This document shows, piece by piece, positions 22,400-24,279 of a stretch of DNA of 64,000 bases (positions are counted from its first letter, which is position 1; each line of letters opens with the position of its first letter). The stretch lies in the NCBI RefSeq assembly GCF_963921235.1, contig NC_086108.1, forward strand, positions 82,586,001 to 82,650,000. Direction: 5' to 3'. Source of the DNA: Mobula hypostoma (taxonomy: Eukaryota). Below the pieces are notes generated by a model, which did not search any database, was not told where the DNA came from, and saw only the letters and a list, made by a program, of their open reading frames with translations. Made by a program: the position numbers and the translations under genes.

Positions 22400-24279
22400 C
22401 TTGAAATGCACAGCCGTTGGAAAATAAAAACACAAATAGTTTAATTATTGGGAGAGGCATGATTTTAACAAACGTTCACATTATTGATATCCCTTTACTT
22501 GCCTTCATCTCTTCATGTCAAGTGAAGCCCATGGACCTCTGCACCTTCCCAGATGGACTGATACAGGGTTCCTTTTGTGTCCAACCCTTAAATATAGTAT
22601 TTCCTATAACTTTGCCAGGGTCTGTCTAAGTGGCAGTGTCTTATTCCAAATTCACTCAACTTGTGCAGGGGTTCACCCTCAATCTGTTGATGAAGGTGAA
22701 TGGTTTTTGACCTGAGATGGACTGAGCCCTAGCAGCAGAATACCTTTCCATTAAGACACTGTAGTTTCCAAGATTACTCAACAACAACCCTTTGGTGTTT
22801 GAGAAAAACTCAGCATATCAGGGTTTGAAGCTTTTCAGTTGTAAGTAGTAATTGTGTGTCATATCGACAGATTATTCTAGCATTAGTGGGATTAGTATAG
22901 ATTGACAAAATGGTTGTAGGCCCTGTTTTCTATGGTGTACAACTCTATGAGGCTAAGATCCTAAGGAACTGGGCAGGGTAAGAATGTCCATGCAGTAGTT
23001 AGTTTACCTAAGGGAAGGAAGGATTTGTTGAATGTAGATTTCCCAAGCCTCTCAGCTTCATTGTGCTCTAATAGTGTACAGAGCAGTGGGTCTTTATAAA
23101 TGTTCCATTAACATGCATAACAAATATCTTTGCTTTCCAGGATGACCTGCAATGAGGTGAGGAGGCCATTTGTTCACCTTTTTTGGAGAACTTTGTTAAT
23201 GGAAAAATATGGTCACAAGATGGGAAGAAATTCATATTTTCTTTTAGGTGATGCCATGGATTTTTTTTTAACATCCAGCAGCAAAATAAATGGGATCCTG
23301 AGGGAATCCTGATTAATTGGGAACAACCTTATTCAAGCTCATTTGTACAACTTCAATGTTGCTTTTTTTTCTTCGTGGCATGATTGTTCCTTAGTAAGCA
23401 CTACATATCTACTGCCAATGGAACTTTGGCCTAATTTTTTCATATTCATATTTTATAGTATCCAAATAGGTCACTCTGTAGGGAAGCAGTGATCATAGCT
23501 TCCCTGAACACTATTTCAACCCTCTCTTTGTTCAACTCTAGTAATCTGTAAGGAGCAGATAGGTCTTTTGTTGTCCTGATTCAATCCATTTATATGAATT
23601 GCATTATATCCCCTCTTTCTCGTTGACCTCTTGTTTATTCATTATCCCTATAGTTGCAAATATCTCCCCATTAAGCACAGAGTTAACTGTACTTTTTTAC
23701 AGTTGAATACTGATTATTTATAATACATAATTCTATAGAGTCTAAGTCACCCAATAAAATTTGCTGTGCTATGTCTAGTCTACACCTGGTTTGTTTGATA
23801 ATAAAAAAAGATGCCATCATTCTGAGCAAAGTATCACCATCTTGTTGGTTGAAGAGACAGACATACATAATAACACCTCTCCAACTTTCAGCAATGTTGT
23901 GTACATCATCTTCCTCTGATGCATCATAATCATTGTTCAGCTGGAAGATTTCTCCCTGTTTGGTCTTATTCTTACCTATTTCATTATGGCCAAAGCAGCT
24001 TTAGTAATGGGATTTCTTCCTCCCTCTGTTTCGGTCTAGGGTTGTCCTAGGCTGCTCCCTAATATTGGCCTCTCCATGGTAACATCAATATAAGACTATA
24101 AGATATAGGAGCAGAGAGATGTTGATGACAGTTTTTCCTCACTTTCTTTTTGTACTTGTATTGCTAGCCATGTAAGTCCAACTGTTTATTTATGTCAGCT
24201 TGACTTAGTTAGATCACAATCCAGTTTAATTCTGAGCATTAATATCCTCTCCATCAAAGTTCCACTGATTCCCACCTCT

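Follow-up and report, generated by a model that had tools for sequence, protein, structure and literature searches.

The window, a stretch of 64,000 nucleotides from Mobula hypostoma, carries on its minus strand the gene dmbx1, which takes part in brain and eye patterning. The coding part of exon 1 (31603..31756, minus strand; 154 nt, ending in phase 1) encodes 51 amino acids identical to the N-termini of DMBX1 proteins and is followed by a U2-type GT donor (GTAAG; GT at 31601..31602, minus strand). Exon 2, where the homeodomain starts, occupies 22221..22399, exon 3 occupies 20072..20426, and the coding part of exon 4 runs through 15561..15967 to the stop codon, all on the minus strand. Splicing exon 1 to position 22414 gives a protein of 369 amino acids and splicing it to 22399 gives one of 364; both frames are open, with no internal stop. 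The long form is identical to annotated Mobula isoform X1 (P0348) and the short form to annotated Mobula isoform X2 (P0334), with 0 differences in either case, and the window's forms lie two residues from the annotated X1 and X2 proteins of Hypanus (long form compared with P0352). Full-length identity to named DMBX1 proteins establishes the gene as a DMBX1 orthologue. Exon 2 is single-copy in genome G000, where the second of its two matches is a paralogue at 79% identity.

A second Dmbx-like homeobox exon is located at 1395-1781 (plus strand) of L002, near 44.089 Mb of G000:C73, with 79% DNA identity over 72 nt; it has a single AG acceptor and lacks the GCxFQ extension described below. Long reading frames at 27193-29368 (plus strand) and 40055-41848 (minus strand) of the window appear to resemble LINE reverse transcriptase, and the first of them lies inside dmbx1 intron 1, on the strand opposite to the gene. 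Repeat depth in intron 1 is very high among the contigs aligned to a 9.8-kb region. The Hemitrygon model (P0347, 376 aa) has the short exon 1-2 junction and carries 12 extra residues elsewhere in the gene.

The two forms of DMBX1 differ at the 3′ end of intron 1. In agreement with the original prediction, the minus strand reads CG, then 15 nt ending in a canonical AG, with exon 2 beginning at 22399. The AG (22400..22401, minus strand) is the acceptor of the short isoform, and the 15 nt (22400..22414, minus strand) form an alternative 5′ extension of exon 2 that adds the residues GCAFQ. Immediately upstream, in the context AACG, lies the non-canonical 3′ splice site CG (22415..22416, minus strand; C at 22416, G at 22415), whose junction is present in a transcript contig of a relative. 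A polypyrimidine tract at 22419..22436 (minus strand) adjoins the CG and not the AG, as had also been predicted: in the 20 nt at −4 to −23, the CG is preceded by 13 T and the AG by 7 (pyrimidine fractions 0.75 and 0.65), and the gene's other two acceptors have 10 T each in the same span. Beyond the tract lies a predicted, A-rich branch-point-like motif (22439..22448, minus strand) with candidate adenosines at 22441 and 22445, which, judged by the motif, stand at −27 and −31 from the CG end and at −42 and −46 from the AG end. Tract and predicted branch point appear positioned for the CG rather than for the AG.

Between 22494 and 22401 there is no AG other than that of the canonical acceptor. 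CpG is depleted five-fold in intron 1 (observed/expected 0.19), and the CpG of the CG site persists nonetheless. Several features known from tandem acceptors are present, namely a U2 GT donor, a canonical AG within 28 nt (here 15 nt) and a conserved flanking intron. Folding of the RNA at 22360-22480 found no stable structure, with 197 of 200 shuffled sequences folding as well, and we therefore dropped the idea that a hairpin masks the AG.

Evidence that the CG is used comes from sequencing run X2, which derives from another organism with exons approximately 92-93% alike and whose status as RNA was inferred by program. A contig of 2810 nt (depth 30.3) from this run aligns to 22219-22415 and continues, gap-free, on 31602/31603-31759, covering exon 1 and joining it to 22414. 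At its opposite end the contig extends into exon 3, indicating that it is spliced, with both introns removed. This is a single transcript contig, from a relative, and the only dmbx1 contig found in that run represents the long form; because contigs drop variants, it gives no long:short ratio. Contigs from runs X1 and X3 do not cover exon 1 and contain no junction. For exon 2, no RNA record was listed, from the window's species or otherwise, an absence that carries no weight as to expression. The short junction, from exon 1 to 22399, was not seen in the sequencing runs examined, so alternative use of the two ends rests on annotation.

Annotated proteins contain both forms. Exon 1 is joined directly to GC[AT]FQ in 46 of 120 protein rows, mostly predicted models, from teleosts, gar, coelacanth, amphibians, reptiles, birds, platypus and placentals, and the short form appears in 43 of the 120. 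Annotated long proteins may in part have been propagated by homology; one long protein (P0283) derives from assembled sequencing contigs (7 contigs). The GCTFQ-containing long isoform of mammals, which the original prediction had mentioned, agrees with the named proteins. Together, the X2 junction, the annotated ray proteins and the conservation described next support the proposal that the long isoform is made by splicing at a non-canonical CG acceptor.

We searched for the site in other DNA using a degenerate pattern for the extension that left the upstream bases unspecified. The metagenome collection yielded three unrelated contigs (L003, L004 and L005); scans of the genome-contig and viral-contig collections gave 0 matches. 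AACG precedes the extension in the window and in 3/3 of these contigs, two of which (L003 and L004) bear an extension of the GCTFQ type. The branch-like motif recurs at −28 in those two contigs and is aligned, though weaker, in L005. In unspliced contigs from three related organisms (X1, X4 and X8), the segment 22354-22424 has no differences among those listed, which comprise 5 of 7 differing places in X1, 9 of 14 in X4 and 6 of 11 in X8. The first base of the site is therefore C in 7/7 DNA sources (the window, X1, X4, X8 and L003-L005), none of which is a named tetrapod.

To extend this comparison in breadth, we turned to proteins that had been translated straight through intron 1 into exon 2 and examined the residue before the glycine, whose codon consists of the three bases just ahead of the final G of the site. 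Asparagine is encoded only by AAT and AAC. An Asn before GC[AT]FQ consequently makes AG impossible at the site, as AG requires a codon ending in A. Asn occupies this position in 69/71 read-through proteins (43/44 in a first set and 26/27 in a second), and the other two have Thr. Excluded before this count were 76 of 120 rows of the first set that lack the extension (invertebrate Dmbx, paralogues, truncated proteins, and P0165 and P0166) and, from the second set, 46 spliced long, 43 spliced short and 4 other rows. Candidates were gathered by words shared with an Asn-containing query, which may have introduced a mild bias, and the rows represent clusters rather than independent events. Carriers of Asn include the chondrichthyans Callorhinchus, Hemiscyllium, Mustelus and Pristiophorus, together with nine further chondrichthyan proteins, and, among bony vertebrates, gar, eight teleosts, walrus, tenrec, tree shrew and sheep. 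Entropy at the Asn codon is 0.19 bits, compared with 1.3-2.8 bits at the next six intronic codons, and its near-invariance would seem to be more than chance. The original prediction had proposed comparing the acceptor across vertebrates; made in this way, the comparison leads us to infer a non-AG end, CG or TG, from chimaera to mammals.

Two groups of proteins depart from this pattern. In P0161 and P0255, Thr (ACN) precedes GCAFQ, which would be compatible with a canonical CAG as well as with a different non-AG end. P0165 and P0166 are DMBX1-like read-throughs, 95-97% identical, without the extension, and could be paralogues or could represent lineages that lost it or never had it. The extension is also absent from invertebrate Dmbx read-throughs and from the Dmbx-like exon of L002, and it accordingly appears to be a feature of dmbx1 in jawed vertebrates.

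We hold with considerable confidence that dmbx1 intron 1 can end at either of two positions 15 nt apart, a CG and an AG, that the CG is used in a relative's transcript, that the site appears to be non-AG across jawed vertebrates, and that both ends are likely served by the major spliceosome through a shared branch point, pyrimidine tract and downstream AG. The locus is best read as a CG/AG tandem acceptor of the U2 type that has been retained throughout the jawed vertebrates.

The most serious competitor retains a conserved non-AG acceptor and makes it TG in some lineages, such as mammals, where the site would then be an ordinary TG/AG tandem. Asn in the read-through proteins fits AAC and AAT alike, CpG readily decays to TpG, and the DNA sources seen include no tetrapod of known origin. 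Against this stands the C found in 7/7 DNA sources, two of them with a GCTFQ-type extension (L003 and L004). The main text of the human screen for TG acceptors (PMC2374985), moreover, does not mention DMBX1, which low EST coverage could explain. On balance we regard a TG in some lineages as unlikely, if worth keeping in view.

A second alternative concerns sharks and chimaera, in which RefSeq-type models from 11 species carry a 12-residue insert and so set a canonical acceptor 36 nt upstream of exon 2. We map this further acceptor, an in-frame AG that sharks and chimaera appear to have, to the position equivalent to 22435..22437 (minus strand) from a comparison of P0242-P0244, P0246 and P0356 with the skate protein P0339 and the window. 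If the long isoform of these animals used the AG at −36, the CG might serve only where that AG is missing; indeed, there is no AG at 22435-22437 in the window, the skate, X1, X4 or X8, and rays and skate, which lack it, show the 5-residue form or a broken model. Several points speak against this proposal. The −36 AG would follow the conserved branch-like A at a distance of only about 5-9 nt, and its use would turn the whole pyrimidine tract into exon. The species with −36 models retain the invariant Asn, and bony vertebrates have the 5-residue form. All 11 models are predicted, with none encountered as a transcript, and their pattern is consistent with a gene predictor taking the nearest AG. 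Given that the AG would crowd the branch-like A and exonise the tract, we read the −36 models as a predictor's workaround, and we find it improbable that they describe the long isoform of sharks and chimaera.

Less probable still is that the X2 junction is real but lies in another register, for instance one removed by the minor spliceosome, or that it is an artefact of template switching or assembly. Two letters at the joint fit either side, such that the intron could be GT..CG, GG..AC or TA..GG; the AC end of one shifted register recalls AT-AC introns, and a 5-nt repeat is common to the end of exon 1 and the extension. Every register is non-AG, however, and we favor GT..CG because it alone keeps a normal donor, the shifted registers requiring two non-canonical ends. 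The donor, GTAAG, is of the ordinary U2 kind, and neither a U12 donor nor a U12 branch consensus is present. Had the template switched at the 5-nt repeat, the extension would measure 11 nt and shift the frame, unlike the 15 nt observed, and the 5-residue insert is present in 46/120 listed proteins. We give this group of readings very little credence.

The remaining two alternatives were raised by the original prediction. The first, that this lineage has lost an older AG and has kept the 15 nt solely as a splicing element within the intron, is not borne out and seems to us barely tenable: the two Thr proteins allow that some lineage may differ, with nothing specific otherwise in its favor, whereas a non-AG end is inferred in 69/71 read-throughs from chondrichthyans and bony vertebrates and the junction is used in X2. 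The framing of the site as a peculiarity of one lineage fails with it, as the feature spans jawed vertebrates. An assembly error or polymorphism at 22416 is excluded, for practical purposes, since six further DNA sources agree with the window there: L003-L005 carry the same bases, and X1, X4 and X8 show no listed difference.

We also tried and rejected three further candidates. A U12-type intron does not fit the GTAAG donor, and the last 50 nt of the intron contain no U12 branch consensus. A separate 15-nt microexon finds, within intron 1, one look-alike with three mismatches at 29267, which is not followed by GT. An acceptor created by A-to-I editing would have to use the AA at 22418-22417, two bases off, and would lengthen exon 2 by 17 nt and break the frame, against the 15 nt present in X2.

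How might a CG/AG tandem acceptor operate? We propose that the major spliceosome recognizes intron 1 through a branch point, pyrimidine tract and downstream AG that the two ends share. By analogy to TG/AG tandems, these three elements would license the first step of splicing. The G of the upstream CG, which sits at the usual acceptor position, would then compete at exon ligation, and either G could be joined. The retention of CG in place of AG may also be understood in these terms: an AG directly behind the tract would be expected to take nearly all splicing, erasing the short form. G-to-A change is a common form of CpG decay, and at this site it would yield an AG displaced by one base from the reading frame. 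The five residues at stake, GCAFQ, sit about 12 residues before the basic arm of the homeodomain.

A stronger claim can be put forward tentatively, and we doubt it more than we believe it: that CG is the preferred acceptor in tissues expressing dmbx1, and that its CpG has been held since the origin of jawed vertebrates because it fixes how much long and how much short form is made of a repressor that patterns the brain. We entertain it because the only form assembled in X2 is the long one. If correct, DMBX1 would offer a conserved, natural readout of how faithfully splice sites are chosen at the second step, and would be a developmental gene, not previously described as such, in whose main transcript an intron ends in CG.

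Non-AG acceptors are very rare, and CG acceptors are usually dismissed as alignment noise. The dmbx1 CG is coding, abundant enough to assemble and, by our reading of the proteins, non-AG from chimaera to mammals; it therefore provides a clean natural substrate for the study of 3′-end choice after branching, and it bears on why a non-AG acceptor should be retained over AG. There are practical implications as well. Aligners and gene predictors that allow only AG miss or misplace the dmbx1 junction, as the 11 shark and chimaera models probably do, and variant interpretation would overlook the CG bases as a splice site.

Our literature search found no paper naming the dmbx1 acceptor, although the 2002-2006 Dmbx1/Otx3 cloning papers, the supplement of Szafranski 2007, file 1 of Parada 2014 or RefSeq notes may do so. 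Searches for isoform and splice gave 0 matches in PMC2954992, and in the portions seen of the PMC11014633 supplements DMBX1 occurs in a primer table only. DMBX1 likewise had 0 matches in the available text and two supplementary files of Parada 2014 (PMC4176328).

The closest known relatives of the dmbx1 site are the TG/AG tandems of GNAS, CNBP, CACNA1A and other genes (Szafranski 2007, PMC2374985). In that paper, every TG acceptor is reported to be an alternative to an AG no more than 28 nt away, and its authors propose that step I depends on the AG, with the choice of site made afterwards. Like these tandems, dmbx1 has a U2 donor, a non-AG end terminating in G, an AG within 28 nt (here at 15 nt, with the CG upstream), an in-frame insert of a few residues and a conserved flanking intron. 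Unlike them, its dinucleotide is CG in all DNA seen, and its conservation, inferred from chimaera to mammals, is deeper than the human-frog span described in the abstract of that paper. The dmbx1 site would thus work like a TG/AG tandem, yet falls outside the class in the strict sense, being CG in 7/7 DNA sources, with no named tetrapod among them.

Introns with GT..CG ends have been reported before. Drosophila has 8 GT-CG introns, each of which shows a similar alternative splicing event (PMC4528330, in the passages available), and per is among the Drosophila GT-CG introns as cited by Szafranski (PMC2374985). The total list of Parada 2014 holds 9 rows for human GT-CG introns, of which only POLR2E was kept in the U2/U12-like sheet, typed as U12 (PMC4176328, in the files available). 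These introns and that of dmbx1 are alike, as far as those sources extend, in their GT..CG ends and in having an alternative canonical site nearby; the passages of PMC4528330 and PMC4176328 available to us contain no statement on vertebrate-wide conservation of any CG site. The GT-GG acceptor of BANP (Parada 2014, PMC4176328) resembles dmbx1 in being non-AG and, by the available account, conserved in most vertebrates; it differs in that the BANP site is AG in fishes, whereas that of dmbx1 is non-AG in fishes and sharks too. In yeast lacking Prp18, the BG 3′ sites used are similarly non-AG sites ending in G, mostly located within 20 nt upstream of the normal site and aided by U tracts (PMC10711555, in the part available). 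Their use reflects a defect in fidelity, in contrast to the dmbx1 event, which is wild-type, conserved and coding. At the protein level, the annotated long and short DMBX1 isoforms are the same pair that we describe, and what our analysis adds is the nature of the acceptor and its conservation. With the isoform pair already annotated, in this genus included, and GT-CG introns already known, the dmbx1 acceptor stands as a new and unusually old example of a rare class.
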